Below are positions 36,538-56,329 of a stretch of DNA of 64,000 nt, piece by piece (the stretch's first letter is position 1; each line of letters begins with the position of its first letter). The notes beneath the pieces are model-generated. The model was not told the DNA's origin, did no database searches, and saw only the letters and a program-made list of their open reading frames with translations. Location: positions 1,245-65,244 of the forward strand of contig CAYNYI010000001.1 of assembly GCA_964401455.1 (NCBI GenBank). The letters are read 5' to 3'. A program made the position numbers and the translations under genes. This DNA comes from an uncultured Fibrobacterota bacterium. Its GTDB lineage: Bacteria; Fibrobacterota; OXYB2-FULL-49-7; CAYNYI01.

Positions 36538-37205
36538 TTGGAGTTCTCCGACTCTACCGGAAATTTGCCTATAACGGTTTCTCCTCCATAAACAACCTGG
36601 TCTTTTTTAATTAATAACTCGGTTCCGGGCGGCAGGAAAAGATCGGTTCTTGAACCAAACCTTATCATACCGAAACGATCGCCTCTTTCAAGCGAATCTC
36701 CTTCGGAGACCCGGCAAACAACCCGCCGTGCAATGAGACCGGCAATTTGTTTAACAAGAATTTTACCATGAGTTCCGGTTTGAATACCTATGATGGTCTG
36801 CTCATTTTCAAGGGAAGCTTTTTCTTTGGCGGCATTAAAAAATTTTCCCGGTACATATTTAAAAAATTCGACCCGTCCCTCGCAAGGAAAACGATTTACG
36901 TGAACATTAAAGACATTCAGAAAAATGGAAATTTTTATCATTTCTCTACCGCAATAAAAACTCTCTTGCTGAGTCGAAATATCAACGATTTTTCCGTCTG
37001 CCGGAGACACAATCAAATTTTCGCCTTCCGGAATTTTCCGTTCAGGGTCTCTGAAAAAATAAATACTGAAAACGAAAAAGACACACAGTAAAGACAATAC
37101 CACCGTTCCAAAAGGACCGCCATTTAAAACACGGTAAAAAATTATATAAGAAGCAAATATCAGTACGGCTTCAAATAAAAGAATCGGTAACCCTTCTTTG
37201 GCCAT
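36534..37205 (-). CDS. psd: phosphatidylserine decarboxylase proenzyme
   Basis: PSD-like fold signature with a C-terminal FGSRT autocleavage-type motif; 223 aa. Its context directly after the pssA-like gene supports the call. Confidence 0.7.
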   Translation of the reverse strand: MAKEGLPILLFEAVLIFASYIIFYRVLNGGPFGTVVLSLLCVFFVFSIYFFRDPERKIPEGENLIVSPADGKIVDISTQQESFYCGREMIKISIFLNVFNVHVNRFPCEGRVEFFKYVPGKFFNAAKEKASLENEQTIIGIQTGTHGKILVKQIAGLIARRVVCRVSEGDSLERGDRFGMIRFGSRTDLFLPPGTELLIKKDQVVYGGETVIGKFPVESENSK

Positions 37206-38356
37206 TATTCAACACCTCTTTTCGAAAGGATAATTGTTTTTTTAATAAATCGGTTCTCCCTGAAAATAACTAAATTTACTCTGCTGTTCGGAAGATAATT
37301 ATTAATCACCGCATCAAAATCAGACGTTCTGAAAACCGGGCATCCGCCAGCCTTGATAATAATGTCTCCTAAACGCAGTCCGGCCCTTTTTGCTGGACCC
37401 CGCCGATCAATGTTTATTATTTCTAAGCCTTTGGGTTTTTCGTTTACCACCCCGAAGGTCATGCCGTAAAAAGTTTTTCTTATGGTTCCATATCTTGAGT
37501 ATTCTTTTAAAAGGGCCTTTACCCTGCCGGAGGACACAGAAAAAGTCAAACCGGCACCATAGGAACCACTGCTGAACATTATTACAGTATTAATTCCGAG
37601 AATGTTTCCCTTCGAATCCACAATCGGCCCGCCGCTGAAACCGGAAATTGCGGGTATGTCAGACTGTATCATGCTATAGTACAAACGGCCATTATAGGAA
37701 AAAGAACGATTGACAGAACCGATTATACCTGAAACAACCACCGGCTTGAAATTGCAAAACTTTCCCGAAAAAGGGTTACCGAAACTGATTATGCGGGTGC
37801 CGGGAATGGAAAAATCATTCGTTTCAAAAGAAAGCTCTTTGAATCCGGTTTCTTTAATCTTTAAAAAAGAAAGGTCCGAAGCGCTGTCTGTAAATAAAAC
37901 TTCGGCGTCATATTCATTTCCGTTTGATGTCTTGACAATAATTTCAAAAGAACCTGAAGTTATATGCTGCGCAGTAACCACAATACCGTCTGGGGTAACA
38001 ATCAGACCCGCGCCGTAAGACGGAAAAACGGCCCCGTCAAAAGACTCCCCTGTACTTTCTCCCAGCAATTCAGACACGGAGGACGAACGCCGGTCATGTT
38101 TACCGGACCCGACAAGCACAATATTATCAGAAACGAGTTCAATAGCGTCCTTATAAGAAACGACGTCAGAGACCGGTGAAAGACCTCTTTCTTTATAAAA
38201 CGGATCAGGAAGATGATTTTTTAATGAATCATTCGAATTAAAAAAATCGTCTTCCCTAAGAACATTTTTGCCTGATGAGTAAGGAATTGCTCTGGTAATG
38301 AGAAAACCGAGACCAAGTCCGGAAAGAATTACTAAAACAAGAATTAAGGTCTTCAT
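37205..38356 (-). CDS. HtrA/DegP-family serine protease with C-terminal PDZ domain
   Basis: Signal/TM segment; catalytic His (VTAQHITSG) and Ser (GFSGGPIVD); PDZ (GLRLGDIIIKAGG). Confidence 0.75.
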   Translation of the reverse strand: MKTLILVLVILSGLGLGFLITRAIPYSSGKNVLREDDFFNSNDSLKNHLPDPFYKERGLSPVSDVVSYKDAIELVSDNIVLVGSGKHDRRSSSVSELLGESTGESFDGAVFPSYGAGLIVTPDGIVVTAQHITSGSFEIIVKTSNGNEYDAEVLFTDSASDLSFLKIKETGFKELSFETNDFSIPGTRIISFGNPFSGKFCNFKPVVVSGIIGSVNRSFSYNGRLYYSMIQSDIPAISGFSGGPIVDSKGNILGINTVIMFSSGSYGAGLTFSVSSGRVKALLKEYSRYGTIRKTFYGMTFGVVNEKPKGLEIINIDRRGPAKRAGLRLGDIIIKAGGCPVFRTSDFDAVINNYLPNSRVNLVIFRENRFIKKTIILSKRGVE

Positions 38357-38364
38357 AGGAAGCG

Positions 38365-38709
38365 CTACTCTTCGTTCTGCATTTTGCAGTTTCCGTGAAA
38401 AACAGCACCTTCATTGATAATAAGATTTTTAGTTTTAATGTCACCGACAAGAGAGGCCTTTTCCTCAAGCTCGACCATTTCAGACACATGAAGATTGCCA
38501 TTTACTTCCCCGCTTATTTTTGCGCTTTTTACCTCAACATCTGCCTGAACACAACCCTCCGAACCGATTGTTAATTCTCCTGAAGATTTAACCGACCCTT
38601 TTACGAAGCCGTCTATTCTTATGTCGTGATCAGCTTCGATACTGCCGTCAAATTTAGCTCCCGCTCCTATCATCGTTAGGAGGTTTCCCGAATAATTTTT
38701 TTCACCCAT
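38365..38709 (-). CDS. bactofilin
   Basis: Bactofilin repeats (FDGSIEADHDIRIDGFVKGSVKSSGELTIGSEGCVQADVEV...). The start is set at internal ATG 38707-38709; the track ORF extension to 38829 overlaps the upstream gene. Confidence 0.7.
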   Translation of the reverse strand: MGEKNYSGNLLTMIGAGAKFDGSIEADHDIRIDGFVKGSVKSSGELTIGSEGCVQADVEVKSAKISGEVNGNLHVSEMVELEEKASLVGDIKTKNLIINEGAVFHGNCKMQNEE

Positions 38710-38734
38710 CTCAATCCCTTTTTTTTTATTAATT

Positions 38735-39583
38735 TTACCTTGCAAGATATTTAAGCGGATCGTCAGAAACGCCATTTCTGACAACCTCAAAATGCAGATG
38801 CGGCGCTGTCGACATTCCGGTATTCCCAAGAAAACCGATTATCATACCCTTTGAGACATAATCGCCTCTTTTTACAGCAAGTCTTGAGCAGTGTCCGTAT
38901 CTTGTCTTAAAACCAAAACCGTGGTCAAGTTCAATAAAATTTCCATAATCTTTTCTCCAACCCGCTATTAATACCATTCCCGGAGCCGATGCTTTAATAG
39001 GTGACCCCATGCTTGCGGCGATGTCTATTCCGTAATGACGCGGCTTGCCGATGCTGTATGACGTATCAAAACCTCTTGTTATCCATCCGTCGACCGGAAG
39101 AATATTTGGTATAGATTCATAAAGAAGCTTCTGCTTTTTAATATCATCCTTGGTCTTAAGGAACTCCATGTTTCTGCGGAGCTTGATGCTTTTAAGATAG
39201 TTTTCGATGTCTTTTTCCGAAATAAGTTCTTCTTTTTTAAAAGATTTTTCTTTAACAACCGGCGCCTTTTCTTCTCTTTCATACACACCGAGGATTGTTT
39301 TTATTTTATTTTGAGCGCTAAGTATTTGTTTTTGAGTTTTAAGATACTCATCTTTATAAACATTTTCCTGTTCAAGGTGCGCGTTGCGGTCCTCAAGATT
39401 TTTAATAAAAATAACTTTCGAAAGTACATTTCCGTAAAAAACTGCGAATAAAATATTAACGATAAAAAAAGCCGAAAAAATAATCCCGAAAACCTTTAGA
39501 AGTCCCGCATTAATTTTAAAGGATATCGGTTTTTCCCGATTATCAGGAAAAATAAGAAAAGAAACATTTTTAAGCTTTTTCAT
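38735..39583 (-). CDS. M23-family (LytM-type) peptidoglycan endopeptidase with N-terminal TM anchor and coiled coil
   Basis: HYGIDIAA (HxxxD) and TAPHLHFE (HxH) motifs; 282 aa. Confidence 0.75.
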   Translation of the reverse strand: MKKLKNVSFLIFPDNREKPISFKINAGLLKVFGIIFSAFFIVNILFAVFYGNVLSKVIFIKNLEDRNAHLEQENVYKDEYLKTQKQILSAQNKIKTILGVYEREEKAPVVKEKSFKKEELISEKDIENYLKSIKLRRNMEFLKTKDDIKKQKLLYESIPNILPVDGWITRGFDTSYSIGKPRHYGIDIAASMGSPIKASAPGMVLIAGWRKDYGNFIELDHGFGFKTRYGHCSRLAVKRGDYVSKGMIIGFLGNTGMSTAPHLHFEVVRNGVSDDPLKYLAR

Positions 39584-39589
39584 AATAAA

Positions 39590-40477
39590 TCAGTGCCTCA
39601 AAGCAGTCAGAATTCTCTCTAGATCGTCAGAGGAAAAATACTTAATTGTTATGCTGCCGGAACCGTTTTTTCCGCAGCTTAGCGAGACTTTCGAATTTAA
39701 CTTTCTGCAAAGCTCGTCTTCAAGAGAAATAATGTCCGGATCCTTTGGCGGAGTCTTCTTTTTTACAAGGGGCTCTTTAGGTTGAGGATTAAGTATTCTC
39801 TCAAGCTCTCTTACACTCAGTGATTCAGAAATTATTTTTTCAAGTAAAGCTTCTTGCTCTTTTACAGTACCCGCCGATATAAGAGCTCTTGCATGGCCAT
39901 AAGAAATTTTTTTGTCAACAAGGGCGCTTCGAACCTCTTCCGGGAGCTTTAAAAGACGCAGTATATTTGTTATAGATGAGCGGCTTTTTCCTATTCTTTT
40001 TCCAAGCTCTTCCTGACTGTAGCCGTGTTTCTGCAAAAGGTCATTGTAGGCAGACGCAAGATCAATTTCATTAAGATCTTCCCTCTGTATATTCTCAATA
40101 AGGCCTATTTCAGAAATCTCTTTGTCGGTAAACTTGCGGATAACCGATGGTATTGTTTCTTTACCCAATTTGCAAAAAGCCCTGAATCGTCTTTCTCCGC
40201 AAACAATCTGAAATTTATCCCCGTGAGGACGAAGCAGAACCGGCTCAACAAGGCCCTGGGTCTTTATAGATTCTGCCATTTCCGCTATGCTGTCTTCAGA
40301 AAAAACTTTTCTGTATTGAAAAGGAGACGGCTCAATCTTATCGAGGGGCGTTTCTATTATTCCTGCGGAAAAGGAATTACCGTTGTTATCCGAAGAGCCT
40401 GTTTCCTCAAAAGAATCTTCGGGTTTTTTTGAAATAAGGGCCTCGAGGCCCCTGCCGAGTCTTCTCTTAGACGCCAT
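39590..40477 (-). CDS. parB: chromosome partitioning protein ParB/Spo0J
   Basis: ParB box (VEPVLLRPHGDKFQIVCGERRFRA), an HTH and a C-terminal dimerisation region; 295 aa. Confidence 0.85.
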   Translation of the reverse strand: MASKRRLGRGLEALISKKPEDSFEETGSSDNNGNSFSAGIIETPLDKIEPSPFQYRKVFSEDSIAEMAESIKTQGLVEPVLLRPHGDKFQIVCGERRFRAFCKLGKETIPSVIRKFTDKEISEIGLIENIQREDLNEIDLASAYNDLLQKHGYSQEELGKRIGKSRSSITNILRLLKLPEEVRSALVDKKISYGHARALISAGTVKEQEALLEKIISESLSVRELERILNPQPKEPLVKKKTPPKDPDIISLEDELCRKLNSKVSLSCGKNGSGSITIKYFSSDDLERILTALRH

Positions 40478-41249
40478 CTACTATCTCCTTGGCCAGCGAC
40501 ATATAGTTTTCCGATCCTGCCGACTTGATGTCATATTTAATTATCGGTTTGCCGAAACTCGGGGCCTCACTTAATTTTACATTTCTATTTATTATGGTCT
40601 TAAAAACATTTCCGGAGAAATGATTTTCCACTTCTTCCTTGACCTGCTTGGAAAGGTTCAGGCGCGGGTCATACATAGTTAAAAGGGCGCCCTCAATTTG
40701 AAGATCATTGTTAAGCGTCTTTTTTATTACTCTGATCGTATTAAGAAGCTCGGCAAGACCCTCTAGAGCATAGTATTCACATTGTATCGGTATTAAAACC
40801 GAATCAGAAGCGCTTAGGGCGTTGATTGTTAATAGACCGAGCGAGGGAGGGCAGTCTATTATTATATAGTCGAACTTATCTTTTACTTTGGATATTTTTT
40901 GCTTAAGCCTGGTCTCCCTGGAAATCATTTTAAAAAGGGCAAACTCCGCGCTCACAAGATCATTGTTTGAAGGCAGCACAAACATATAAGGAAGATCGGT
41001 TTTTTTTATGGATCTTTTAAAAGAGAAAGACCCCTCTTCTGTTCCATCTTCCTCTACAAGAAGATCATAGACAGAAAATTCACAATCCTCCTTATTAATA
41101 CCCAAACCTGTCGTGGCATTTGACTGAGGGTCGAGGTCAATAAGGAGGACCCTCTTTTCCAGAACAGAAAGGCATGCGGAAATATTCACGGATGTCGTTG
41201 TTTTACCGACGCCGCCTTTTTGATTTACAACTGATATTATTTTTCCCAT
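40467..41249 (-). CDS. parA: chromosome partitioning ATPase ParA/Soj
   Basis: Deviant Walker A KGGVGKTTTSVN; 260 aa; overlaps parB by 11 bp. Confidence 0.9.
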   Translation of the reverse strand: MGKIISVVNQKGGVGKTTTSVNISACLSVLEKRVLLIDLDPQSNATTGLGINKEDCEFSVYDLLVEEDGTEEGSFSFKRSIKKTDLPYMFVLPSNNDLVSAEFALFKMISRETRLKQKISKVKDKFDYIIIDCPPSLGLLTINALSASDSVLIPIQCEYYALEGLAELLNTIRVIKKTLNNDLQIEGALLTMYDPRLNLSKQVKEEVENHFSGNVFKTIINRNVKLSEAPSFGKPIIKYDIKSAGSENYMSLAKEIVDGV

Positions 41250-41277
41250 ATTAATAGAATAATATTGTTAATTCTTT

Positions 41278-41910
41278 TCAATAAACGCAAGAGTTTTTAT
41301 CAGAAAAAAACTCAAACAGAGCCCTGTTTTCTAATCCCGGGCGTATTTCATATGAAAACACGCTGTAATTACAACCAACGTTATCGGCAATACGATCCGC
41401 CTCTACTGAAAAACGACCGGTTTTGTAACAGACAAAACCGGAATGACGGTTTTCTTTCAACACTTTTTTTAAAATCTTTTCCTCTCCCCCGAAAGCCTTC
41501 GCGACAAAAAGAGAACCGTCGTTAAATTTTTCAGAAAAAAAATCTGCTGAAACTAACTCTACATTCTTTAGGCCGAGACGGGATATTGCTGTTTTAATAA
41601 ACTCCCCCTTGCTTCTCCTCGACTCAACAAGGTAAAACCGTTTCGCTGGCAAAAAAACCGACAATATAATCCCGGGAACACCCGCTCCGGACCCTATGTC
41701 TACAATATCCTCATATTTATTCTGTATCTTGAACGCTTTTAAAGCAAGAGAATCGAAAACCAATTCATCAAGCATTTCTTTTTCATTCATTTTTTTTGAT
41801 ATAAGCGCATGCTTTTTGTTGTACCGATGAATAAGGCTCAGATATTCTGATATTTTTTCGCCCGCTTCGCCGGAAAAGTCTGCTTCCAAATCTTTAACCG
41901 AATGTTTCAC
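41278..41910 (-). CDS. rsmG: 16S rRNA (guanine527-N7)-methyltransferase
   Basis: SAM motif DIGSGAGVPGIIL; 210 aa; conserved position between mnmG and parA. Confidence 0.8.
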   Translation of the reverse strand: MKHSVKDLEADFSGEAGEKISEYLSLIHRYNKKHALISKKMNEKEMLDELVFDSLALKAFKIQNKYEDIVDIGSGAGVPGIILSVFLPAKRFYLVESRRSKGEFIKTAISRLGLKNVELVSADFFSEKFNDGSLFVAKAFGGEEKILKKVLKENRHSGFVCYKTGRFSVEADRIADNVGCNYSVFSYEIRPGLENRALFEFFSDKNSCVY

Positions 41911-41919
41911 GTGAAACAG

Positions 41920-43782
41920 TCACCTTTCCCGGGCTAATTTTGCAAGATAAACAAGCAATATAGATATGTCCGCAGGGGTTACACCCGAAATACCGGAAGC
42001 CCTCCCTATTGATTCGGGCCTCACCTTTTTCAGCTTTTCCCTCGCCTCAGTCAGAAGCCCCGGGACGGAATCATAGTCTATAGCTTCAGGTATTATTTTT
42101 TCCGCCTCTTTTTTCAGCTTTTCCGCCTCGGTTCTTTGCTTATTTATATATCCAAAATACTTTGTTTCAGCCTCGCCTATTAAAAGAATGTCTTCATCAC
42201 AGTTATTATTTAATATTTCAGAAGGAATATCGAAAATACGTATCTGCGGACGTTTTAAAAAGTCGAATATCTTTTTCCCCTCTTTCGGAGCAGACAGTCC
42301 TTTGGTGATTAAGATTTTTTCAGAGTCTTTAAGGCTTATGGCTGTTTTCTTAAGAGATTCCAGCAGATTTTCTACTTTTTTTCTCTTTTCCTTTACTGAA
42401 CCGGCACGCTCTTTTGATATGAGCCTTTGCTTTACTGCTTTATCCAGAAGTCTCAAGTCGGCATTGTCCTGCCTTAATAGAAGCCTGTATTCTGCTCTTG
42501 AGGTAAACATTCGATATGGCTCTGAAACACCTTTGGTGATAATATCGTCAATCAGAACCCCGATATAAGATTCTGCTCTGGTCATAATGAAAGGCGGCTC
42601 TCGAAGTATGCTGTTAGCGGCATTTGTTCCGGCAACAAGGCCCTGGGCGGCCGCTTCCTCATATCCGGAAGTTCCGTTCACCTGCCCGGCTAAAAAAAGC
42701 CGCTCTGCGATTTTTGACTCAAGAGTAAATTTAAGTTGTTCAGGATAAAAAAAGTCATATTCGATTGCATAGGCGTATTTACTAATTTGAGCACTCTCCA
42801 TGCCTGTTACAGATCTTACTATTTCTTTTTGAATTTCTTCAGGAAAAGAATTAGACAATCCGTTTATATAATAATTTTCTGAGGCCCAACCCTCAGGCTC
42901 AATAAAGATCTGATGTGTATCTTTGTCGGGAAAACGGACTATTTTGGTTTCGATCGAGGGGCAATAGCGTGGTCCGATTCCGGTGATTGTTCCGTCAAAA
43001 AGAGGAGACCTGCTCAGATTTTTTTCTATGATTTTTTTTGTTTCTATCGTTGTTGAAGTTACAAAACAGGGCTCCTGTTCCCGGGCTTTGTCCTTTTTCG
43101 TTATAAAAGAAAAATAAGGCGGAGGATTTTCACCATGTTGTATCTGAAGGGAATCGGTATTTACAGAGGACCTCTTAATTCTGGCCGGAGTGCCTGTTTT
43201 TAATCGACCTCTTTTTATCCCGAGAGAAAGAAGGCTTTCAGACAAGTTTTCATTAGATTTGTAATCAAGGCAACCGCCATCGGTCTTTTCTTTACCCTTG
43301 TGCATGATTCCGTTTATATATGTTCCGGCTGTAATTACAACAGCGCCACCCTCAACCTCTCCCCGGTTTTTTGTTATAACAACCCAGGACCCGGTATTTG
43401 ATGAAACTATTTTAATAGCATGGTCCTCCCAAATATCCAGGGTTTTATATTCCTGCAAATATCCAATCATAGTCTCGGTATATTTCACTCTGTCCATTTG
43501 CGCCCTGGGAGACCACACAGCAGGGCCTTTGCTTTTGTTAAGCATTCGGAACTGTATTCCGGCACGATCTGCCGCCTTAGCCATCAAACCCCCAAGCGCG
43601 TCTATTTCTCTGACAATAATTCCCTTGGCCAACCCCCCGATGGCGGGATTGCAAGGCATATGGCCCACAGATTTTATCTTGTGTGTAACAAGCAGAACAG
43701 AGACTCCTTTTCGGGCCGCAGCCGAAGCAGCCTCTATACCCGCGTGTCCTCCTCCAACAACAATTACATCGTAATGTTTCAC
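41920..43782 (-). CDS. mnmG: tRNA uridine 5-carboxymethylaminomethyl modification enzyme MnmG (GidA)
   Basis: MKHYDVIVVGGGHAGIEAASAAARKG FAD motif; 620 aa, GidA-like throughout. Confidence 0.9.
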   Translation of the reverse strand: MKHYDVIVVGGGHAGIEAASAAARKGVSVLLVTHKIKSVGHMPCNPAIGGLAKGIIVREIDALGGLMAKAADRAGIQFRMLNKSKGPAVWSPRAQMDRVKYTETMIGYLQEYKTLDIWEDHAIKIVSSNTGSWVVITKNRGEVEGGAVVITAGTYINGIMHKGKEKTDGGCLDYKSNENLSESLLSLGIKRGRLKTGTPARIKRSSVNTDSLQIQHGENPPPYFSFITKKDKAREQEPCFVTSTTIETKKIIEKNLSRSPLFDGTITGIGPRYCPSIETKIVRFPDKDTHQIFIEPEGWASENYYINGLSNSFPEEIQKEIVRSVTGMESAQISKYAYAIEYDFFYPEQLKFTLESKIAERLFLAGQVNGTSGYEEAAAQGLVAGTNAANSILREPPFIMTRAESYIGVLIDDIITKGVSEPYRMFTSRAEYRLLLRQDNADLRLLDKAVKQRLISKERAGSVKEKRKKVENLLESLKKTAISLKDSEKILITKGLSAPKEGKKIFDFLKRPQIRIFDIPSEILNNNCDEDILLIGEAETKYFGYINKQRTEAEKLKKEAEKIIPEAIDYDSVPGLLTEAREKLKKVRPESIGRASGISGVTPADISILLVYLAKLARER

Positions 43783-43794
43783 GTGAAACCTTTT

Positions 43795-45165
43795 CTATTT
43801 GCCGATACAGAAAGAAGAGAAGACCTCGTCCAGAACGTCTCTGCCGCCGGCCCTCCCCGTTAAGAGATCTATTTCGCGAATAACCTCTCTGTGTGTTTCG
43901 GATATGATTTCTTCCGGTAGTTTTTCATTTACAGAATCCGCTGTTTTTTTAAGCCCCGCAAGAATATTTTCAAGCCCTTTTTTCTGTCTTCCTGAAGCAG
44001 CTATAAGCATGTTTCCGGTTTTTTCCTTCCTTCTTTTACATTCACCGGAAATTTCTTCAAGCAGGCGGCCAAAACCTTCTCCATTTTTAGCCGAAACTCT
44101 TAAAACCTTTTCTTTAGCGAGAATCCTCTTTTCAACTGTTTTCTCAAACACCTTGTCAACACCCTTGTCTATTTTGTTGACAACATATATGGTTTTCTTG
44201 TTTAGGAGCATTTTCCTGACCTCCATACAATGGGGGTCGGGTTCAGCCGAGCCATCAAAAATAGCTATTACAACATCAGACTGCTCTATGCTCTGTCTTG
44301 CTCTGTCGATACCCATTATTTCTATCTCGTCATCGGCCCTCCTTATTCCTGCTGTATCGGAAAAAGAGACTTTCAGTCCGCAAATATTTACGGTTTCCGA
44401 AATTCGGTCCCTTGTTGTTCCCCCGACCTTATGAATAATGGACCTTTCTTCACCGAGAATCCTGTTAAACAGGCTGGACTTGCCGGCATTTACGTGGCCG
44501 GTCAGGGTTATTTTTACACCTTTTCCCAAATCCGAAATTTCACAGGTTTCATCAAAGTTTTTTATATAAATGCCTATCGCCTCGTCAATAAATTTTTTTG
44601 AAGCGTCCAATCCGAACTGCCCTATGTTTTCCTCTGAAAAATCGAGCTCGAGCTCTATAGCAGACTGCGACTTTAGCACATTTTCTCTTATTTTTTCCAG
44701 ACTCTTTGTTATGTTGCCACTCATGGCTTTTTGCGCAGCATCATTTTCCACCTCTGACTCGGAGCCTATGATCGCCATAACAGACTCCGCCTCAATCAAA
44801 TTCAGTTTGCCGTTAAGAAAAGCACGTTTTGTAAATTCCCCGGGGCCGGCAGGCATTATCCCGGACTTGTAAAGAGATTCAAGAATCTTTGATTTTATAT
44901 ACCGACTCCCGTGGCAATGAATTTCAACCACGTCCTCGCCGGTATAGCTGTGCGGAGCTCTGAAACAAACCATCATTACTTTATCAATGAGTTTATCCTC
45001 AAATACAAAACCACACAGCGAAAGTTTTCCTGTTTCTCTGAAAATATTCTTTTTGTCCGAATATTCAGACAATATTTCTACCACCCCCGCTCCGCTTATT
45101 CTCAAAACTGCCACTGCGCTTTTTTGATCTGGAGTTGAAAATGCCGCAATTATTTTTTCTTTCAT
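43795..45165 (-). CDS. mnmE: tRNA modification GTPase MnmE (TrmE)
   Basis: G domain (GHVNAGKSSLFNRIL; DTAGIR), N-terminal IAAFSTP motif and C-terminal CIGK. The start is taken at MKEKIIAAFSTP (ATG near 45165); the track ORF begins at 45189. Confidence 0.85.
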   Translation of the reverse strand: MKEKIIAAFSTPDQKSAVAVLRISGAGVVEILSEYSDKKNIFRETGKLSLCGFVFEDKLIDKVMMVCFRAPHSYTGEDVVEIHCHGSRYIKSKILESLYKSGIMPAGPGEFTKRAFLNGKLNLIEAESVMAIIGSESEVENDAAQKAMSGNITKSLEKIRENVLKSQSAIELELDFSEENIGQFGLDASKKFIDEAIGIYIKNFDETCEISDLGKGVKITLTGHVNAGKSSLFNRILGEERSIIHKVGGTTRDRISETVNICGLKVSFSDTAGIRRADDEIEIMGIDRARQSIEQSDVVIAIFDGSAEPDPHCMEVRKMLLNKKTIYVVNKIDKGVDKVFEKTVEKRILAKEKVLRVSAKNGEGFGRLLEEISGECKRRKEKTGNMLIAASGRQKKGLENILAGLKKTADSVNEKLPEEIISETHREVIREIDLLTGRAGGRDVLDEVFSSFCIGK

Positions 45166-45259
45166 AGAAAGAGAAAATAATAATTTCATTTTATCAATAA
45201 CTAATCCTATTTTAAATTGTAAATTTTATTAAAATAATTGAATTTTTATGAATATTTTA

Positions 45260-45288
45260 TTGACCTCATTAGTTAGATTTAATATGAT
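45260..45288 (+). promoter_or_regulatory. putative sigma70-type promoter (TTGACC-17 nt-TATGAT) for the REC-HDOD-STAS gene
   Basis: -35 TTGACC at 45260-45265 and -10 TATGAT at 45283-45288 with a 17-nt spacer, about 30 nt upstream of ATG 45319 in an AT-rich divergent intergenic region. Confidence 0.3.
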
Positions 45289-45318
45289 TTATACTGGTGT
45301 CTCTCAAAAGAAAAATTC

Positions 45319-47439
45319 ATGAATAATATTCTTTTAATATCAAGCAATAAAAAAGAGGAAGAAGTATTAAAGCTTCTACTTGAACAGTCTTCTTTTAAGG
45401 TTATTTCATCCATCCCGGACTATGCAAACTATCTTAAGATCCTCCAATTTAAACCGAGGCTTATTCTAATTGAAATGCCGTCAAACTATGTTAATCAAAT
45501 AAGCTATATGAAAATGGTGCGCCGCAACAAAAACACAAGGAAAACACCAATCATTTCTTTCGGCAGTCATTCCGACAAATTCATCACTAACAGCTTTGTT
45601 GCTTCCGGTTCAAATGAATATATATCGAGGCCTCTTAAGGCTAAAGATCTTCTGGAAAAATTCCAGCGTCTTTTAAGGTTAAAATCCCTCCCTTCTGAAA
45701 AAAACAAAAACGAGGAGGAGCAAGAGCTTTCAGAAATAATGCTTGATGAAAACAAAGCCGGTTCCGAAAAAATTAATGCCGTAGTTTCTCATGTAGACAA
45801 AGTTCTTGCTTTTCCTTTTACTGTTGCTAAACTACTAAAAATCTCAAGCAGTGAAGAATCCGGTGCTTCAGACCTCGCAAAGGTAATTAAGTCAGACCCG
45901 GTTATAACAGCCAAAATCCTCAAAGTATGTAACTCTGTCCTTTTTGCGACAAGAAACAACAAGACGATTTCAGACGTAAAAAAAGCTATAGTCAGAATAG
46001 GTTTTAACGAAACGAAACATATAGCCATGTCAATGTCTGTAATTAACCTTTTCTCAAAAGATGAAAAAAGCACCGGTTTTGACAGAATAGATTTTTGGTA
46101 TCATTCTCTTGCCACAGCTGTCATTTCCGAAAAACTGGCATCTACAAGCGGCGTGGCAAACCCCGAAGACGCCTTTGTTGCCGGCCTCCTCCATGATTTT
46201 GGAATTATGATAATGGATGAGTTTATGGGCAATGTTTTTTTTAAGGTCATAGAAAAAACACTAAACACTCCAATAAAATTTATTGATGCCGAAAAAGAAA
46301 CAACCGGCGTTGATCACACAGACTTTTCCGCGGAGCTTTTTGAAAAATGGAAGCTTCCCTCTGCAATAATAAACAGTATGAAAAACAATCACCGATACCT
46401 TGAGATTGCTGAAGATTCTGAAGATTCGGGTATTACACAATGCGTAGGCCTGGCAAACATAATAGCCAGAAGCTTATCTATAGGTAAAGATGTTGATTAT
46501 TTCATTCATTATCCTACGGATGAAATTTTTAAAAAATTGAAATTGCCGCACGGTCTTCAATCTAAGTTTTTTGATGACATTTTTGAACAGATGAATATGT
46601 TCAATAAATTTCTTAATATTGACAAACGCTCCTTCCCTGATCCGGACATGAGCATACCGGGAAAAGACGAAGAAACCAGAATTGTTTACATAAAAAATAA
46701 AAAGGAGAAGTTCAATCCTGTTTTTGCTTTTACCAAAAATCTTACTGAAAATATTTTAGAAACGTCGTTTGAAAAACCCGAGACTGATTTTGAACCCGGA
46801 GTTAAAAACGTCTTTATTTACGATTTTTCAAAAGAGGTTTTTGATCTCTCTAAAATTAAAAGTCCGGAGGCCTCTCCAAAAATAATTATAGGCCAAAAAG
46901 AAAAGAACGACGAAAGAACCCGTTATTATGCTGATGAAATAAACCTTCGTTTCCTTGAGAATGACATTACTTTTTTTACAACAGGAAAGGAAACAATAAA
47001 AAGAGAATTTGTCGGGAAAGAAGATGAAAATAGCATACATATATCAATACGGGACCTTCAGGACGGAATAAAATGTGTTGATATAAAAGGGCGCATGATA
47101 GTCGCCAATATGCTGAAAATTCAGAAAAAAATGATTAATATTTTAAAAGAAAACCCTAAATATCTGTCTTTGGACCTGTCTAAAATAAGTTTTATAGACA
47201 GTAACGGCATTATGCTCATAATTAATCTTAATAAAAGAATAAGCAAAAATGGCGGAAAATTTTGTCTTTTGTCTCCGTCAGAAAATGTAACCGATCTCTT
47301 AAAAATAAACAATATTTCTGATCTTGTAACCATTGCTCACTCAGAAAAGGAACTTGAAAAAGTTTTCGATATAGAACTCCCGCCTATGGAAGAAATCGAC
47401 CCGGAAGTTTATGATGTGGGCGGTGATGAAATAGTTTAA
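45319..47439 (+). CDS. multidomain signalling protein: pseudo-receiver + HDOD + uncharacterised middle + C-terminal STAS (anti-sigma-factor-antagonist-like) domain
   Basis: N-terminal REC-like fold with the acceptor position substituted (LILIEMP instead of D) and the DD pair absent. HDOD core (…ITAKILKVCNSVLF…AGLLHDFGIMIMDEF). C-terminal STAS-like segment (LSLDLSKISFIDSNGIMLIINLNKRISKNGGKFCLLSPSENVTDLLKI). Confidence 0.6.
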   Translation: MNNILLISSNKKEEEVLKLLLEQSSFKVISSIPDYANYLKILQFKPRLILIEMPSNYVNQISYMKMVRRNKNTRKTPIISFGSHSDKFITNSFVASGSNEYISRPLKAKDLLEKFQRLLRLKSLPSEKNKNEEEQELSEIMLDENKAGSEKINAVVSHVDKVLAFPFTVAKLLKISSSEESGASDLAKVIKSDPVITAKILKVCNSVLFATRNNKTISDVKKAIVRIGFNETKHIAMSMSVINLFSKDEKSTGFDRIDFWYHSLATAVISEKLASTSGVANPEDAFVAGLLHDFGIMIMDEFMGNVFFKVIEKTLNTPIKFIDAEKETTGVDHTDFSAELFEKWKLPSAIINSMKNNHRYLEIAEDSEDSGITQCVGLANIIARSLSIGKDVDYFIHYPTDEIFKKLKLPHGLQSKFFDDIFEQMNMFNKFLNIDKRSFPDPDMSIPGKDEETRIVYIKNKKEKFNPVFAFTKNLTENILETSFEKPETDFEPGVKNVFIYDFSKEVFDLSKIKSPEASPKIIIGQKEKNDERTRYYADEINLRFLENDITFFTTGKETIKREFVGKEDENSIHISIRDLQDGIKCVDIKGRMIVANMLKIQKKMINILKENPKYLSLDLSKISFIDSNGIMLIINLNKRISKNGGKFCLLSPSENVTDLLKINNISDLVTIAHSEKELEKVFDIELPPMEEIDPEVYDVGGDEIV

Positions 47440-47456: not shown

Positions 47457-48065
47457 ATGTCATCTCAAATTATAAAATCTTCTTTATTTCTCTTCTTGCT
47501 TCTTAATCCATTTTTATTAATTATATATATTCTGGATCTTGTTCAGGACCTTAATCACAAATCATTCAGCAAGCTTTTGATTAATGCCGGATTAATCTCT
47601 TTTTTTGTTCTTTCCTGTTTTGCTTACGCAGGAACATCTTTTTTCAGCGGCTTTCTTCAAGTTAAATTCTATTCTTTTCAGATTTTCGGCGGCATTGTTT
47701 TTCTCATTATATCAATACGTTTTATTTTTCTTGGAAACACGGCGTTTAAAGGCATCAGGGGAAACCCCTCCTCTTCAAGCGGCTCAATAGCAATGCCTAT
47801 AATGATCGGCCCAGGTACTGTAGGAGGGGCTGTTCTTGCGGGGGAAAACCTGGTTTTACCACTTGCTTCAATATCTATTTTTTCGTCTATCTTTTTTTCA
47901 GTTATAATAATGATCATTCTGAAATTTGTTTATGATTTCGTTAAACCAAGAAACGAATTAATTGTTGAAAGATATATAGACATAGCTGGCCGAATCGCGT
48001 CTCTTATTATAGGGACCTTCTCAATTGAAATGATAATGTCCGGAATTACCTGTTGGATTTCATGA
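47457..48065 (+). CDS. MarC-family (UPF0056) integral membrane protein
   Basis: 202 aa, six TM helices, N-terminal LLLNPFLLIIYILDL pattern resembling MarC-family proteins. Confidence 0.5.
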   Translation: MSSQIIKSSLFLFLLLNPFLLIIYILDLVQDLNHKSFSKLLINAGLISFFVLSCFAYAGTSFFSGFLQVKFYSFQIFGGIVFLIISIRFIFLGNTAFKGIRGNPSSSSGSIAMPIMIGPGTVGGAVLAGENLVLPLASISIFSSIFFSVIIMIILKFVYDFVKPRNELIVERYIDIAGRIASLIIGTFSIEMIMSGITCWIS

Positions 48066-48697
48066 AAAAACTCTCGGTTCCATTTATAAAAACAGAACAA
48101 CCTGAAAGCTATTTTTCCGGAAGTGATAGTCTAATTCATTCTGTTTCAAACTGTTCATGGCCCGGGTTTAATTATAAGCCGACTGTCTCTTTTAAAATAG
48201 CCCATGATAATAAATCCATTTTTCTTAATTATTCTGTTTCTGAAAAATATATTCTTGCCTTATGTACAAAAAACAATGAGATGGTTTGTAAAGACAGCTG
48301 TGTTGAATTTTTTCTTTCTCCCGACAAAAAAGGCTATTATAATTTTGAATTTAACTGTATAGGGACAACTCTTTGCTTTTTCGGTAAAAACAGACACGAC
48401 AGAAACCCCCTTTCCGGCAAAAGCATAGACAGTATAGAAAAACTTTCTTCTCTTGGAACTACGCCTTTTCAAGAAAAAACCGGTAGCTTTACATGGGACC
48501 TTTTTTTAAAGATACCTTTGTCCGCTTTAGAGCATCACAAAATACATGATCTGCGTGGAAAATCTTTTCGTGCTAATTTTTACAAATGTGGAGACCGTCT
48601 TACAGAACCTCATTTTCTTTCATGGAATAAAGTAAACAGCGATAAACCGGATTTTCACCGGCCGGAATTTTTCGGGGAAATTTATTTTGAAAAGTGA
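48053..48697 (+). CDS. hypothetical protein (DOMON/CBM9-like beta-sandwich suspected)
   Basis: 214 aa, aromatic-rich with no TM segment; overlaps the flanking genes by 13 and 11 bp, implying an operon with the MarC-like and patatin genes. Confidence 0.4.
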   Translation: MDFMKKLSVPFIKTEQPESYFSGSDSLIHSVSNCSWPGFNYKPTVSFKIAHDNKSIFLNYSVSEKYILALCTKNNEMVCKDSCVEFFLSPDKKGYYNFEFNCIGTTLCFFGKNRHDRNPLSGKSIDSIEKLSSLGTTPFQEKTGSFTWDLFLKIPLSALEHHKIHDLRGKSFRANFYKCGDRLTEPHFLSWNKVNSDKPDFHRPEFFGEIYFEK

Positions 48698-49697
48698 ATA
48701 CAAAATATTCCGAAGACCAAAAATCCTCTGCCTTGACGGAGGGGGCCTAAGAGGAATATTTACCCTTCAGATTCTAAAGCAGATCGAGAAAGATACCGGA
48801 AAAAAACTATATGATATTTTTGATCTTATATGCGGAGTAAGCACCGGATCTATAATCGCTTTTATGTCGGGTCTTCTGAAATTTCCTACGGAAAGAATTG
48901 AAGATATATACCTTGAGGTAGGCGAAAGAATTTTTTCCAAATATCCGCTAATGGGTATTATTGATCTCTTTTTTAAAAACTCCAAGTTTAATTCGGATAT
49001 TCTTGAACATGAGCTCAGATCTTATTTCGGAGAAGACAATAAGCTTTCTGATTTTTCGAAAAATAAACCGATGGTTTCCTGTACCGCAAGCGAAAGCTCT
49101 TTGTCTCCCGGTAGATTATGCGTTTTCAGTACCTATGATCACGAAGGCCTGCCCTTTCATGGAACCAATAAAATAAAAACCTGGGAAGCTGTAAGAGCTT
49201 CTTGTTCCGCGCCTTTTTACTTTACTCCCATGAAAATAGAAAACATATCATATGGGTCCCTTTCTGTTAATCCAAATACTTTTCCCGGCCCCATAGAAAT
49301 GCCAAAAAAAAGAAGAACTTATATAGACGGTGCGGTTATCTCGGCTAATCCTTCATATATCTCTTATCTTGAATCAAGATTTCTTTTTAAAAGCCTTTTG
49401 AAACCTTTTGTTGTTAATGTCGGCACGGGGCAGGCTCTTTCTTCTCTACCGGATTCTAATGATGAAATGTGGATCTATGGTCTGACAAGAAAAACAATTG
49501 AGACATCCATGAGCGTTCTTCATGTACCAGCAGTTATGTCCGGTCTGCTGCATAAAAATTACTATTATATAAACGGCACCGTTGCCTATGGGGGTATAAG
49601 CAACCTGGAATATGTAAAAAACTGGATCGAAGAAGGAAAAAATACAGCAAACTCTTTTTCAGAATGGGAAACCCTTATAAAAAAGCTCCGTTCATGA
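48687..49697 (+). CDS. patatin-like phospholipase
   Basis: Oxyanion/Gly-rich motif LCLDGGGLRG, nucleophile elbow CGVSTGS and a DGA-type second catalytic motif (YIDGAVIS). Confidence 0.75.
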   Translation: MKSEYKIFRRPKILCLDGGGLRGIFTLQILKQIEKDTGKKLYDIFDLICGVSTGSIIAFMSGLLKFPTERIEDIYLEVGERIFSKYPLMGIIDLFFKNSKFNSDILEHELRSYFGEDNKLSDFSKNKPMVSCTASESSLSPGRLCVFSTYDHEGLPFHGTNKIKTWEAVRASCSAPFYFTPMKIENISYGSLSVNPNTFPGPIEMPKKRRTYIDGAVISANPSYISYLESRFLFKSLLKPFVVNVGTGQALSSLPDSNDEMWIYGLTRKTIETSMSVLHVPAVMSGLLHKNYYYINGTVAYGGISNLEYVKNWIEEGKNTANSFSEWETLIKKLRS

Positions 49698-51635: not shown

Positions 51636-52030
51636 ATTGTATAATTATCAATCAGGAAAGAAAAATCTTTTTTTAACTCAGAAAAACCTGTTTTTAAAGT
51701 ATTTTTATTTATGCAGATCATTAGAAATTCTCCGTTATTTTCTTTACAAAAAGAATGGTCTCTAATCATTTCCCGCATAAACCGCTTACATTTGTTTCTG
51801 TCTACGGCTCTTTTAAAAATTCTCTTCGGAGCACTGACGCAATAAGAAAAACCATCATTTATCTCCGGTATGTAATAAGCCTTAAAAAATTCAGATCCGC
51901 TTTTTCTACCAGATCTGAATAAAATTTCCAGGTCATTTTTCTTCTTTAAGGTACAAAAGTGTCTTTTAGTATCAGGCTGTGAGAGATTTTCTTCCTTTTG
52001 CTCTTCTTCTGGAAAGGACTTTTCTACCAT
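51632..52030 (-). CDS. rnpA: ribonuclease P protein component
   Basis: Position between rpmH and yidD; basic RnpA-like core ([16 protein letters not shown]...). As called, the 5' end overlaps rpmH by 59 nt, so the true start is uncertain. Confidence 0.65.
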
Positions 52031-52109
52031 TTTTTGTACTCATTCTTTTACGAAACCCGTGTTTATTTTTGCGCTTACGGTTTCTAGGCTGAAATGTCAG
52101 ATGTGCCAT
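51972..52109 (-). CDS. rpmH: 50S ribosomal protein L34
   Basis: Translated by hand because the ORF is under 60 aa: [45 protein letters not shown] (compare E. coli [39 protein letters not shown]). ATG at 52107-52109. Confidence 0.85.
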
Positions 52110-52280
52110 TTTCGCTCCTTTATATCTGATTGCTCTTAATTAAAATCAATGTTTTTACTGGGAGAAGATATAAATTATTGATGTTAACAGTCAAGAGAAA
52201 ATCTTTTAATACAGTAATTTACGAAAATCTATTCTTACCTGTTTATATTTAAAATTTCATTTTTTATGGCTGATAAAAGT

Positions 52281-52310
52281 AATATATTTATCCTCAAATG
52301 GATAAAAACG
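52281..52310 (+). promoter_or_regulatory. DnaA-box palindrome overlapping the dnaA start codon
   Basis: TTTATCCtcaaATGGATAAA: TTATCCTCA (1 mismatch to TTATCCACA) and its inverted partner TGGATAAA flank ATG 52298. Confidence 0.45.
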
Positions 52311-53623
52311 AATGCTGGAAACATTTCCTGGAAAAAGCTTCTGAAGAATTTGACAGCAGTCTTTTCAAAACATGGATAAAACCGCTTAAACCTCTTGTCA
52401 TTTCCGAAGACCGGGTTATTATCTTTGTAAAAGACGCCATTTTTATGGAATTCATAGAAAGTAATCATTCCGATAAAATAAAAAATCTTCTTAAAAATAT
52501 ATGCGGATTCCCAATTAATCTTATTTTTACCGATAAAGAAATTGTCTATGAAAAGAAATTTGACAAAAAAGAAAAAGTCAATGTTAATAAAGGTGAAATT
52601 AATCCGGATTTTACCTTTGACGATTTTGTTGTAGGCGGAAACAACCGGTTTGCGTATTCCGCCTCACACGCGGTAGCGGAATCACCCGGTAATAATAAGT
52701 TTAATCCTCTTTACCTTTACGGGAAAAGCGGTCTGGGTAAAACACATCTTCTTTTTGCCATTGGAAACTATGCCGTTAAGAATCACAGTAACCTTAATAT
52801 AAAATATGTTTCCGCAGATAAAATGCAAAGAGATCTCATAGAAAACATACAAAAAAACAAAACCGCGGAATTCAGGGAGTCTTTTAATAATTTGGACATC
52901 CTTCTTGTTGATGATATCCATTTTTTGTCCGGCACATCATCTACACAGGAAGAATTTTTTCACATTTTCAATACCATTTATCAGCGTTCAAAACAGATTA
53001 TTATAACAAGCGACAAACAGCCAAGAGAACTTTCAGGAATAGAAGACAGGTTGGTTTCAAGATTTCAGTGGGGTCTTTCTGTTGATATTCAACCTCCTGA
53101 CCTTGAAACGAAAATTGCTATATTAAATAAAAAAGCAGAGAATCATAGTTTTGAACTTTCTCCGGATATCATAAGATATATAGCTTCAAATACCGATAAT
53201 ATAAGGGAGCTTGAGGGATGTATAATAAAACTTTTAGCTTATTCATCAATAAACAACAGGCTTGAAATAACACTTGATCTTGCAAAGGATGTTCTAAAAT
53301 TCGGAACCGGAATCGCAAGAAAAAAGATATATATTGAACAAATAACGGAAAGTGTTATTAACTATTATAAAGGTTATAAAATAGATATTAATGATGTTCT
53401 TTTCGGAGGAAGAAAAAAAGAAGTAGCCCTGGTCAGACAAGTTTCAATGTATCTATCAAGAACAATGACATCCAATTCCTTAAAAAATATAGGAAGCTAC
53501 TTTAGAAAAGATCACAGTACGGTTGTACATTCTATTAAAAACATAAATAAACTTCTAAAAGAAGATGAACAGCTTGGAAATGATATAGAAAACATTAAAA
53601 AAAATATAACTGAAAACCTTTAA
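52298..53623 (+). CDS. dnaA: chromosomal replication initiator protein DnaA
   Basis: AAA+ Walker A LYGKSGLGKTHLL; a C-terminal DnaA-box-binding domain; 441 aa. Confidence 0.95.
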   Translation: MDKNECWKHFLEKASEEFDSSLFKTWIKPLKPLVISEDRVIIFVKDAIFMEFIESNHSDKIKNLLKNICGFPINLIFTDKEIVYEKKFDKKEKVNVNKGEINPDFTFDDFVVGGNNRFAYSASHAVAESPGNNKFNPLYLYGKSGLGKTHLLFAIGNYAVKNHSNLNIKYVSADKMQRDLIENIQKNKTAEFRESFNNLDILLVDDIHFLSGTSSTQEEFFHIFNTIYQRSKQIIITSDKQPRELSGIEDRLVSRFQWGLSVDIQPPDLETKIAILNKKAENHSFELSPDIIRYIASNTDNIRELEGCIIKLLAYSSINNRLEITLDLAKDVLKFGTGIARKKIYIEQITESVINYYKGYKIDINDVLFGGRKKEVALVRQVSMYLSRTMTSNSLKNIGSYFRKDHSTVVHSIKNINKLLKEDEQLGNDIENIKKNITENL

Positions 53624-53923
53624 TAAGCTATTTAAATTTAATAAGTTCTTGAAGAACAACCCGATTGACTGTTGATAACATGTTAAATTTAACAACCGAT
53701 GTTTTTTGAACATTTTTTTATTTAATGTAATCTGCTGATTTTTAATAAATTAAACACCATATAAACAATATCAACACTACTATAATATTAATAAATTTAA
53801 ATTAATAAAAAATTTAATATTAGTAGGCTGTTAGTATCACTCAAATAAATATTTTCTTGTATTATATTTGGTTTTAATTTATATTTTTTTGAAATTAATC
53901 ATTCTTTTTGAGGGGAAATAAAT
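53624..53923. promoter_or_regulatory. candidate oriC (AT-rich unwinding region with DnaA-box-like motifs) between dnaA and dnaN
   Basis: A 300-bp non-coding spacer of very low GC. TGTTGATAA (53670-53678) and the inverted ATATCAACA (53768-53776) are about 100 bp apart, followed by an uninterrupted A/T tract at 53781-53822. Confidence 0.5.
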
Positions 53924-55051
53924 TTGAAGTTCAATATAAAAAAATCAGATCTTCTTTCTGTGCTTCAGAATGTTGTCAGTGCCATATCAACCAAAACGAC
54001 GATTCCATATTTATCATATATCCATATTTCCGGAAATAATAATAAATTAAAAATCTCGTCTACTGACCTTGATATGTTTATTACCGGATCCGTTCCCGCT
54101 GATGTGGTTCAGGATACGGATATACTGGTAAGTGGTAAAAAGCTTCTTGATATAATCAAAAACCTTCCGGAAGTTGTGGTTGCTTTTAAAGTCGAGGAAA
54201 ATTTTCTGGTAATAGAGGCTGAAAAATATAAAGGAAAGCTTCCTGTAGCGGATGTTGCTGATTTTCCATCTATTCCTTCCATTTCAGATGTTTACAGTTT
54301 TAAAATTAAATCTGAAAGTATTCAAAAATTAATAAGTAATGTTGTTTACGCGGCCTCTACTGACGAAAGTATGCCTGTTTTAAGGGGATTGAATTTTGAG
54401 GTAAATAAAAACAGAATAAGAATGGTAGCTACAGACAGACATAAAATGGCCCTTTATGAAATTCAGTCTGATACAGGTATTGAAAAAGACTCAAGAATTA
54501 TTATTTCAAGGAAGACCGCTTCTCATATACAAAAAACGATCGATATTTTTTCTCCGGATGAAATAGAAATTTCAGTCAGTGAAAAATTCTGTATTTTCAG
54601 CATGGGGGAGACCACTGTTTTTTCAAAAATAATTGAGGGAAAATATCCTAATTATGAACAGGTTATACCAAAAGATAATAAAAAAACCGCTATTGTAAAT
54701 AAAAGTATTCTTCTTAATAAAATTAATCTTGTAAGTCTTTCGTCGGACACAAATACAAAACAGATACTTTTTAAATTTTCAGCCGGCTCTTTAAGTCTTA
54801 GCGCACACAATAAAGAAACTTCTTTTTATTCTTCGGAAGAAATTCCTGTGTCTTATAACGAAGAGGAAATATCAATAGCCTTTAATTCTCAGTTTCTTTC
54901 AGAAACACTGAAACTTGTTAATACCGAAGAAGTGAGTTTTAATATGAAATCTTCTTTAAACGCGTGCATTATAGTTCCTACTGAGCATAAAGAAGGTGAA
55001 AATTCTTTATTCCTTCTTATGCCTCTAAGAACAGTTGAAGAGAATGCTTAA
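53924..55051 (+). CDS. dnaN: DNA polymerase III beta sliding clamp
   Basis: 375 aa with a TTG start preceded by a GAGGGG RBS and three clamp-domain repeats. Confidence 0.9.
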   Translation: MKFNIKKSDLLSVLQNVVSAISTKTTIPYLSYIHISGNNNKLKISSTDLDMFITGSVPADVVQDTDILVSGKKLLDIIKNLPEVVVAFKVEENFLVIEAEKYKGKLPVADVADFPSIPSISDVYSFKIKSESIQKLISNVVYAASTDESMPVLRGLNFEVNKNRIRMVATDRHKMALYEIQSDTGIEKDSRIIISRKTASHIQKTIDIFSPDEIEISVSEKFCIFSMGETTVFSKIIEGKYPNYEQVIPKDNKKTAIVNKSILLNKINLVSLSSDTNTKQILFKFSAGSLSLSAHNKETSFYSSEEIPVSYNEEEISIAFNSQFLSETLKLVNTEEVSFNMKSSLNACIIVPTEHKEGENSLFLLMPLRTVEENA

Positions 55052-56309: not shown

Positions 56310-56329
56310 CAGTTAGTTGATATTTTCAT

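Follow-up and report, generated by a model that had tools for sequence, protein, structure and literature searches.

The window, that is, the whole stretch of DNA analysed here, comprises 64,000 nucleotides (64 kb) from an uncultured Fibrobacterota bacterium, and its gene of interest encodes a protein of 706 amino acids (aa) in which an HDOD domain is combined with a STAS domain. The original prediction, made from the sequence alone, had described this open reading frame (ORF) at positions 45319-47439, and the ORF listing agrees with it exactly. The ATG is the earliest start codon past the in-frame stop, and the N-terminus of the product is aligned with the N-termini of its homologues. The protein is a soluble signalling protein with four domains, arranged in the following order (Table 1): (i) an aspartate-less, or pseudo-, receiver (pREC1); (ii) an HDOD domain; (iii) a second, more degenerate receiver-like domain (pREC2); and (iv) a STAS domain of the SpoIIAA type. 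Proteins of the HDOD-STAS kind are rare, with precedent, and the present one combines known signalling parts.

Table 1. Coordinates in the window of the HDOD-STAS gene, of its domains and key codons, and of nearby features
Feature	Positions	Strand	Remarks
Complete ORF, pREC1-HDOD-pREC2-STAS signalling protein	45319-47439	+	706 aa plus stop, ATG start
Domain 1, aspartate-less (pseudo) receiver pREC1	45319-45678	+	Residues 1-120; Pfam, AlphaFold2, Foldseek, PhoB mapping, family conservation
E52 codon, position of the phospho-acceptor Asp	45472-45474	+	
HDOD domain and helical extension	45811-46623	+	Residues 165-435; Pfam, 3HC1 match, conservation
Domain 3, second receiver-like domain pREC2	46675-46986	+	Residues 453-556; more degenerate; no Pfam hit
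SpoIIAA/RsbV-type STAS domain	47038-47364	+	Residues 574-682; Pfam, TIGR00377, Foldseek, PDB sequence hits
S628 codon, predicted phosphorylatable serine	47200-47202	+	Motif F-I-D-S-N-G, SpoIIAA S58 position
Best sigma-70-like promoter match	45260-45288	+	TTGACC-17-TATGAT, 10/12; in the spacer shared with mnmE; consensus match only
Three co-directional downstream genes	47457-49697	+	MarC-family membrane protein, CBM9_2-like protein, patatin-like phospholipase

The AlphaFold2 (AF2) model of the whole protein, for which 96 relatives were used, is confident over its entire length (mean pLDDT 89.6, pTM 0.82). When compared with the PDB by Foldseek, this model retrieves HDOD structures (3HC1, SadB 9QZK, MmoQ 3P3Q and 3M1T), receivers and SpoIIAA chains. 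The domain search suggested in the original prediction places HDOD and STAS above their Pfam cut-offs, and Response_reg under its own. The protein had been taken to be cytoplasmic, in agreement with the globular model and with its hydropathy: there is no transmembrane segment, the maximum Kyte-Doolittle mean over 19 residues being 1.26, compared with 2.5 in the adjoining MarC protein. Hence, the case that had been named as capable of overturning the prediction, a SulP/SLC26-type transporter whose membrane domain had gone unnoticed and whose cytoplasmic tail is the STAS region, has a probability next to nil. It is refuted by the single uninterrupted ORF, the confident globular model and the lack of any hydrophobic segment; in addition, the Pfam scan of the 706-aa protein gives no transporter family (no Sulfate_transp), and the best matches of the STAS domain are anti-sigma antagonists.

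Regarding pREC1, residues 3-119 show the (beta/alpha)5 secondary structure of CheY-like proteins in the AF2 model, and many receivers match the domain in Foldseek at a target TM of 0.8-0.9, among them the constitutively active D10A/D53E mutant of PhoB. The Pfam Response_reg profile matches residues 4-115 with 27.6 bits, under its gathering cut-off of 30.2. It had been claimed that the phospho-acceptor Asp is replaced within the motif LILIEMP (residues 48-54) and that the acidic pocket is missing, and both claims stand after mapping onto PhoB, a mapping that is backed independently by PDB matches to PhoB sequences. In this mapping, E52 occupies the position of D53, S8/S9 that of the acidic pair E9/D10, G82 that of T83 (the Thr/Ser position), and R104 that of K105. 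Among 96 family members, 90 have Glu and three have Asp at the position of E52, 94 share the Gly of G82 and 93 the Arg of R104; further conserved residues are E13 (92/96) and N10 (75/96). Since E52, G82 and R104 are kept across the family, the replacements in the active site do not represent decay. As judged from its sequence, then, pREC1 carries no phosphotransfer residue at all, with a Glu fixed where the Asp belongs, and it offers a clear example from nature of a receiver with Glu for Asp that a whole family conserves. The original prediction had spoken of a phosphorylation-independent adaptor: the predicted independence of the receiver is well supported by these counts (90-94 of the 96 members), and the adaptor role is what we infer.

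According to a survey of aspartate-less receivers (ALRs), Glu is the commonest replacement of the phospho-Asp (26%), a change from Asp to Glu is able to mimic activation, with ChxR as a natural example, and ALRs are enriched with HDOD outputs (PMC4395418). Because this ALR-HDOD pairing is found in the survey, the N-terminal two-thirds of the window protein are of a known kind. The ALR-HDOD proteins of the survey and the window protein share an N-terminal receiver fold, a Glu in place of the phospho-Asp and a subsequent HDOD domain without an assigned output function. Unlike them, the family of the window protein adds a degenerate pREC2 after the HDOD domain and, in a small branch, a STAS domain, and its named members are all Fibrobacterota.

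The HDOD domain had also been foreseen, and it is strongly supported: the Pfam profile (PF08668) matches residues 165-359 with an E-value of 7.5e-49 (166.3 bits, cut-off 22.9), and 3HC1 is both the top fold match (E 2.8e-13, target TM 0.73) and the top PDB sequence match (E 2e-21). The fold runs past the Pfam boundary to approximately residue 435, a stretch that contains the invariant G389 and D393. 3HC1 is the structure of a stand-alone HDOD protein of unknown function (GSU NP_953345), and in its site two iron ions are held by five His and one Asp (PMC12075610). The corresponding positions in the window protein, inferred from the alignment and from HD-domain motifs and not from structure, are H262, H292, D293, H333 and H358, with N357 in place of the fifth His. 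By this alignment the pocket would keep four of the five His plus the Asp of the di-iron protein, and it may bind a metal or a small ligand. Across the family, H262, H292 and D393 are invariant, D293 is found in 93/96 members and H333 in 79/96, the last two of the positions aligned with 3HC1 are mostly Gln and Tyr, and C392, near-invariant elsewhere, is Val in the window protein.

These residues raise the question of whether HDOD works here as a metal-dependent HD phosphohydrolase, the protein being in that case an enzyme regulated by its flanking domains. The generic Pfam HD model matches residues 260-364 (E 8.4e-9), the NCBIfam HDIG model TIGR00277 is above its cut-off (33.4 against 27.6 bits), H262, H292, D293, H333, H358 and D393 are all present, and 3HC1 does bind its two iron ions (PMC12075610). 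An enzyme is nevertheless improbable: one of the five aligned His is Asn here, at a position mostly occupied by Gln or Tyr in the family, the near-invariant Cys is lost, and the HDOD role is given in the literature either as unknown (PMC4395418) or as that of a non-catalytic adaptor, as in SadB (PMC12075610). SadB of Pseudomonas (a YbaK-like N-domain plus HDOD; 9QZK), the second-best structural match, is a cytoplasmic proteolysis adaptor with a dispensable HDOD pocket and without a demonstrated enzymatic role, and it provides a precedent for an HDOD protein that acts purely as an adaptor (PMC12075610). Compared with the window protein, SadB is devoid of most pocket histidines, of receivers and of STAS, and its partner AmrZ/Lon is Pseudomonas-specific.

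Between the HDOD and STAS domains lies a feature overlooked in the original prediction, namely the second pseudo-receiver (approximately residues 453-556). In the family, pREC2 has Trp or Ala at the would-be phospho-Asp position and a signature, D-L-R-x-L-D, in which D542 is kept in 92 and R544 in 93 of the 96 members. The window protein reads NLRFLE at this signature, and its Asn at 542 is unique among the 96.

The C-terminal STAS domain was expected to be of the SpoIIAA anti-anti-sigma type, an assignment that both the Pfam and the Foldseek results favour. The Pfam profile (PF01740) matches residues 581-678 with an E-value of 1.7e-15 (57.1 bits, cut-off 22.6), the NCBIfam SpoIIAA model scores 39.4 bits, and TIGR00377, the superfamily of anti-sigma-factor antagonists, scores 52.9 bits against a cut-off of 53.45. 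Among solved structures, the nearest folds are those of SpoIIAA from its complexes with SpoIIAB (1TID_B and 1TH8_B), Foldseek matching as well the antagonist 4HYL, and the PDB sequence matches to the region are TM1081, TM1442, SpoIIAA (1AUZ, 1TH8) and RsbV (6M36). As for the phospho-site, S628 (F-I-D-S-N-G) is the predicted phosphorylatable Ser, aligned with the phosphorylated S58 of SpoIIAA at the start of helix 2; the matches to 1AUZ, 1TH8, TM1442 and RsbV 6M36 support the mapping. Whether this site is conserved was one of the checks suggested beforehand: D627-S628 is invariant in the nine STAS-bearing relatives that were aligned (9/9). The likeness to SpoIIAA/RsbV thus includes the STAS fold, a D-S-x-G phospho-site at the S58 position and, as best folds, SpoIIAA bound to SpoIIAB. 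But while SpoIIAA and RsbV are single-domain proteins, here STAS constitutes the C-terminal ~110 residues of 706 aa, with a slightly sub-cut-off TIGR00377 score and no cognate kinase, phosphatase or sigma gene nearby. Outside the family, the top relatives of the STAS domain are mostly proteins of ~225 aa with two tandem STAS domains (P0120, P0122 and many others), together with proteins of 700-1600 aa with three STAS domains plus TPR repeats; the scores of these multi-STAS relatives sum several domains, and their closeness per domain may be lower.

An N-terminal input followed by a C-terminal STAS output is also the layout of the RsbR paralogues and YtvA, treated for example in PMC9237108 and PMC10949197, and the window protein could accordingly be pictured as an RsbR-like stressosome subunit that assembles with RsbS and holds the RsbT kinase. 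Such a role is highly improbable. The inputs here are pseudo-receivers and HDOD, not globin or LOV domains; neither the window nor the surroundings of the homologues contain a gene resembling RsbS, RsbT or RsbX; and the best sequence and fold matches are single-domain antagonists of the SpoIIAA/RsbV/TM1442 type.

The window protein belongs to a larger family that was likewise overlooked at first, that is, it represents the STAS-bearing branch of a family with an HD-GYP gene as recurrent neighbour; the new points of the present analysis are the second pseudo-receiver, the definition of the family and the HD-GYP linkage. The pREC1-HDOD-pREC2 family comprises more than 100 clusters, the best match being 39% identical to the window protein, and those members that have names are all Fibrobacterota, Chitinivibrionales or Chitinispirillia. 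Approximately 100 clusters, of 570-650 aa, carry pREC1-HDOD-pREC2 without STAS, and since most members lack the latter, the core works without it. C-terminal tails vary: they may be absent, low-complexity, a helical module of ~120 aa, or STAS. The window protein is collinear with the family over its full length and has its signature residues (E13, E52, G82, R104-P105, H262, H292-D293, G389 and D393), with two family-typical residues changed (C392 to Val and D542 to Asn).

An exhaustive profile search of 1.84 billion representatives yielded 59,484 STAS proteins at E<=1e-3 and, among them, four more full-length HDOD+STAS proteins (P0135, P0139, P0240 and P0250), which brings the C-terminal STAS architecture to approximately 13 clusters in total. 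P0250 corresponds to MBN1980944.1 in NCBI nr, where it is named only "HDOD domain-containing protein". The fusion is therefore already present in public databases under a generic name, and all its modules, as well as the ALR-HDOD pairing, are known. A full-text literature search for HDOD together with STAS returned nothing relevant, a word-indexed search with the STAS region alone gave no matches, and a single-protein scan of genome contigs gave only an unrelated receiver match of 21% identity in a metagenome-assembled genome (MAG) of Deltaproteobacteria. Exact look-ups of the window protein and of the CHASE2 cyclase encoded in the same window (see below) found no existing record.

When the HDOD core is used for a neighbour-joining tree (no bootstrap), eight STAS-bearing proteins, the window protein included, form an exclusive clade and two more lie nearby, a topology that fits acquisition of STAS once or twice in the family. 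The MnmG encoded in the window is 100% identical to a protein of an NCBI Fibrobacterota bacterium MAG, and the next-best MnmG is only 52% identical; the lineage is thus poorly sampled, and an identity of 39% is compatible with orthology. From the same population as the window comes a second public assembly, GCA_046542585.1 (JBKHBB010000001.1, L091), which matches positions 31920-45991 of the window with one mismatch in 14,072 bases (99.993%). Its contig ends inside the gene of interest, at window position 45991, and only a 224-residue fragment is annotated there.

Neighbouring genes were clustered across 48 family loci, which were not de-replicated, so that the frequencies are rough. The sole recurrent neighbour is an HD_5 (HD-GYP) protein of ~465 aa encoded on the same strand. 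Its gene is immediately adjacent in 16 of the 48 loci (L008, L009, L011-L014, L017, L020-L023, L025, L029, L031, L032 and L052): immediately downstream in 13, with gaps of -1 to 217 nt, and immediately upstream in three, with gaps of 15-92 nt. In two further loci it lies within 3 kb, and when only the loci with at least 1.5 kb on each side are counted, it is adjacent in 10 of 25. The stop and start codons of the two genes often overlap. In L009 (positions 4819-8714), a stand-alone STAS gene (110 aa), an HD_5 gene (419 aa) and a 733-aa HDOD+STAS family member follow one another on one strand, with a FapA-domain protein and receiver proteins encoded upstream. Since single-domain STAS genes also occur in L026 and L044, STAS proteins do exist in family genomes.

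A recurrent HD-GYP neighbour indicates cyclic-dinucleotide signalling at least as much as sigma-factor control. It could be, therefore, that the protein is a cyclic-dinucleotide adaptor with no sigma factor involved, whose core works with an HD-GYP phosphodiesterase and whose STAS domain serves for interaction or oligomerisation, or for direct control of an enzyme. Besides the pairing itself, with ends often overlapping or nearly so, this explanation would account for the variable C-terminal tails and for the lack of any sigma or anti-sigma gene near the family members. In addition, non-sigma targets have been proposed for STAS proteins: SypA and the HenR/STAS system of Anabaena are said to be such cases, and papers on STAS proteins of this sort include PMC4517449 and PMC13555669. 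Against it, the strict D-S phospho-site and the SpoIIAA-like fold favour kinase-controlled switching of some sort, and the 64-kb window has no HD-GYP gene (a tblastn search of the window with the HD-GYP neighbour of a related locus gave no match). The canonical HD-GYP motif is HHExxDGxGYP, and the one neighbour sequence that was read, that of L008, departs from it (T-H-E-R-E-N-G-Q-G-Y-P). All in all, an adaptor of this kind, free of any sigma factor, is considered rather unlikely, although it is the leading rival of the reading preferred below.

In the window itself, mnmE (43795-45189, minus strand; Pfam TrmE_N, MnmE_helical and MMR_HSR1) is, as originally described, divergent from the HDOD-STAS gene; the spacer measures 129 bp. 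Relatives do not keep this adjacency, which is functionally uninformative, and a conserved mnmE/oriC neighbourhood was rejected, as no homologue shares it. The number of promoter-like sites in the region is not above that of shuffled sequences. The three genes downstream, which are separated by 18 nt or overlap at their ends, possibly form a co-transcribed local operon. As none of them recurs next to relatives, MarC, CBM9 and patatin were rejected as functional partners. The five STAS-bearing relatives that were inspected have no neighbours in common with the window.

Two other candidates were discarded. Hanks-type kinases located 3-8 kb from two homologues were taken as coincidence. A 672-aa GHKL protein (18114-20132, plus strand) was rejected as an RsbW-like partner: its HATPase_c domain (residues 423-534) is of the histidine-kinase type, with no HATPase_c_2, and its gene is 25 kb away. 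No HisKA/DHp or receiver domain is detectable in it, and its ~140 C-terminal residues have no assignment. At 18 kb from the HDOD-STAS gene, a fusion of a CHASE2 sensor with the catalytic domain of an adenylate/guanylate cyclase is encoded (969 aa; 24682-27591, minus strand), a further gene of cyclic-nucleotide signalling in the window.

At approximately 52000-58000, the genes of the window are arranged as at a replication origin: the minus strand carries rnpA, recognised by eye in its translation, and yidC, and the plus strand carries dnaA, dnaN, an unknown ORF, recF and gyrB. In this region the G+C content drops to 0.30-0.32, and cumulative GC skew is lowest at ~54-56 kb, some 5-9 kb from the HDOD-STAS gene. 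The unknown ORF (424 aa; 55035-56309, plus strand), located between dnaN and recF, has no Pfam family and overlaps the end of dnaN by 17 nt. Two genes are broken: (i) gyrB (57764-59680) has one in-frame TAA at 58712-58714, at a conserved Arg of the GyrB motif GEDIREGL, its halves (HATPase_c plus DNA_gyraseB; DNA_gyraseB plus Toprim plus GyrB_C) being in the same frame; and (ii) ligA, for the NAD-dependent DNA ligase (22100-24075, minus strand), is split by a frameshift near 23458-23461 into ORFs of 205 aa (adenylation domain, positions 2-134) and 453 aa (adenylation, positions 144-253, followed by OB, Zn finger, HhH and BRCT). The gyrB stop may reflect an error of assembly, a pseudogene or recoding; that two essential genes are broken within a single window suggests sequencing errors in the MAG. 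Several isoprenoid and lipid genes are dispersed over the window, at 4166-5359 (plus strand), 20245-22108 (plus strand) and 35674-37205 (minus strand), and include a geranylgeranyl-reductase-like FAD protein, a UbiA prenyltransferase beside a Caroten_synth-family protein, a CDP-alcohol phosphatidyltransferase and a phosphatidylserine decarboxylase. Finally, two minus-strand genes, one for a DUF4423 protein (12788-13690) and one for a protein of 774 aa that ends in a type IX secretion sorting domain (59728-62052), fit an origin in Fibrobacterota or the FCB group by the distribution of these domains.

The reading preferred here is a composite one: the window protein would be an adaptor that works without Asp phosphorylation, that switches its STAS output at S628 and that is probably tied to cyclic-dinucleotide signalling. 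It is proposed tentatively, its likelihood being judged to lie somewhat short of even. In such a scheme, (i) pREC1 would take no phosphate from a histidine kinase and would act as a fixed-state scaffold or dimerisation module; (ii) the HDOD domain, by its pocket or its surface, would receive the input or bind the partner, with a plausible link to a cyclic-dinucleotide phosphodiesterase of the HD-GYP type whose gene would lie elsewhere in the genome; (iii) the C-terminal STAS would be the output and, when unphosphorylated, would bind a serine kinase/anti-sigma factor of the RsbW/SpoIIAB type or some other STAS client; and (iv) phosphorylation of S628 would free the target in the style of partner switching.

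The original prediction had already suggested that the protein feeds a partner-switching cascade while noting that no RsbW- or RsbU-like partner is encoded nearby. The conserved phospho-Ser motif speaks for such a cascade, and against it speaks that neither the window nor the flanks of five STAS-bearing homologues contain a partner of the kinase, phosphatase or sigma kind; the role is only plausible. Several points weigh against the composite reading. Pfam scans of the window, which covered those ORFs of 110 aa or more that were taken as genes and left out a few short or overlapping ones, rnpA and rsmG among them, found no gene for an RsbW-type HATPase_c_2, SpoIIE/PP2C, sigma-factor or HD-GYP protein, and RsbW-type kinase, PP2C and sigma genes are equally absent beside the five STAS-bearing relatives in the contigs inspected, a negative that holds for these stretches and not for the genome as a whole. 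Most family members have no STAS, the TIGR00377 score remains fractionally under its cut-off, and STAS domains also function outside sigma control. Moreover, the loci behind the HD-GYP count are not de-replicated, and binding by the HDOD pocket is predicted from residues, ligand or metal binding by the HDOD of SadB being dispensable.

A bolder version of the composite reading would see the STAS-bearing branch as a bridge, so far undescribed, that connects cyclic-dinucleotide signalling with partner switching, where a metal- or ligand-binding HDOD pocket and an HD-GYP protein would together set the availability of the phosphorylatable STAS. This bridge is unlikely, and is offered as speculation. 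If it were true, an anti-sigma kinase of Fibrobacterota, or some other STAS client, would be coupled to the state of a second messenger or to the redox state, and L009, with its stand-alone STAS, its HD-GYP protein and its HDOD-STAS fusion, would be the intact form of the module. In itself, the protein joins known signalling modules once more, in a lineage that is uncultured, and its general impact is modest. HDOD domains are widespread in bacterial signalling and their role is described as unknown, the one mechanistic study found, that of SadB, showing HDOD as an adaptor. A family with an HDOD domain framed by two fixed-state pseudo-receivers, often paired with HD-GYP and, in one branch, fused to a phosphorylatable STAS offers a tractable handle on HDOD sensing and signal relay.

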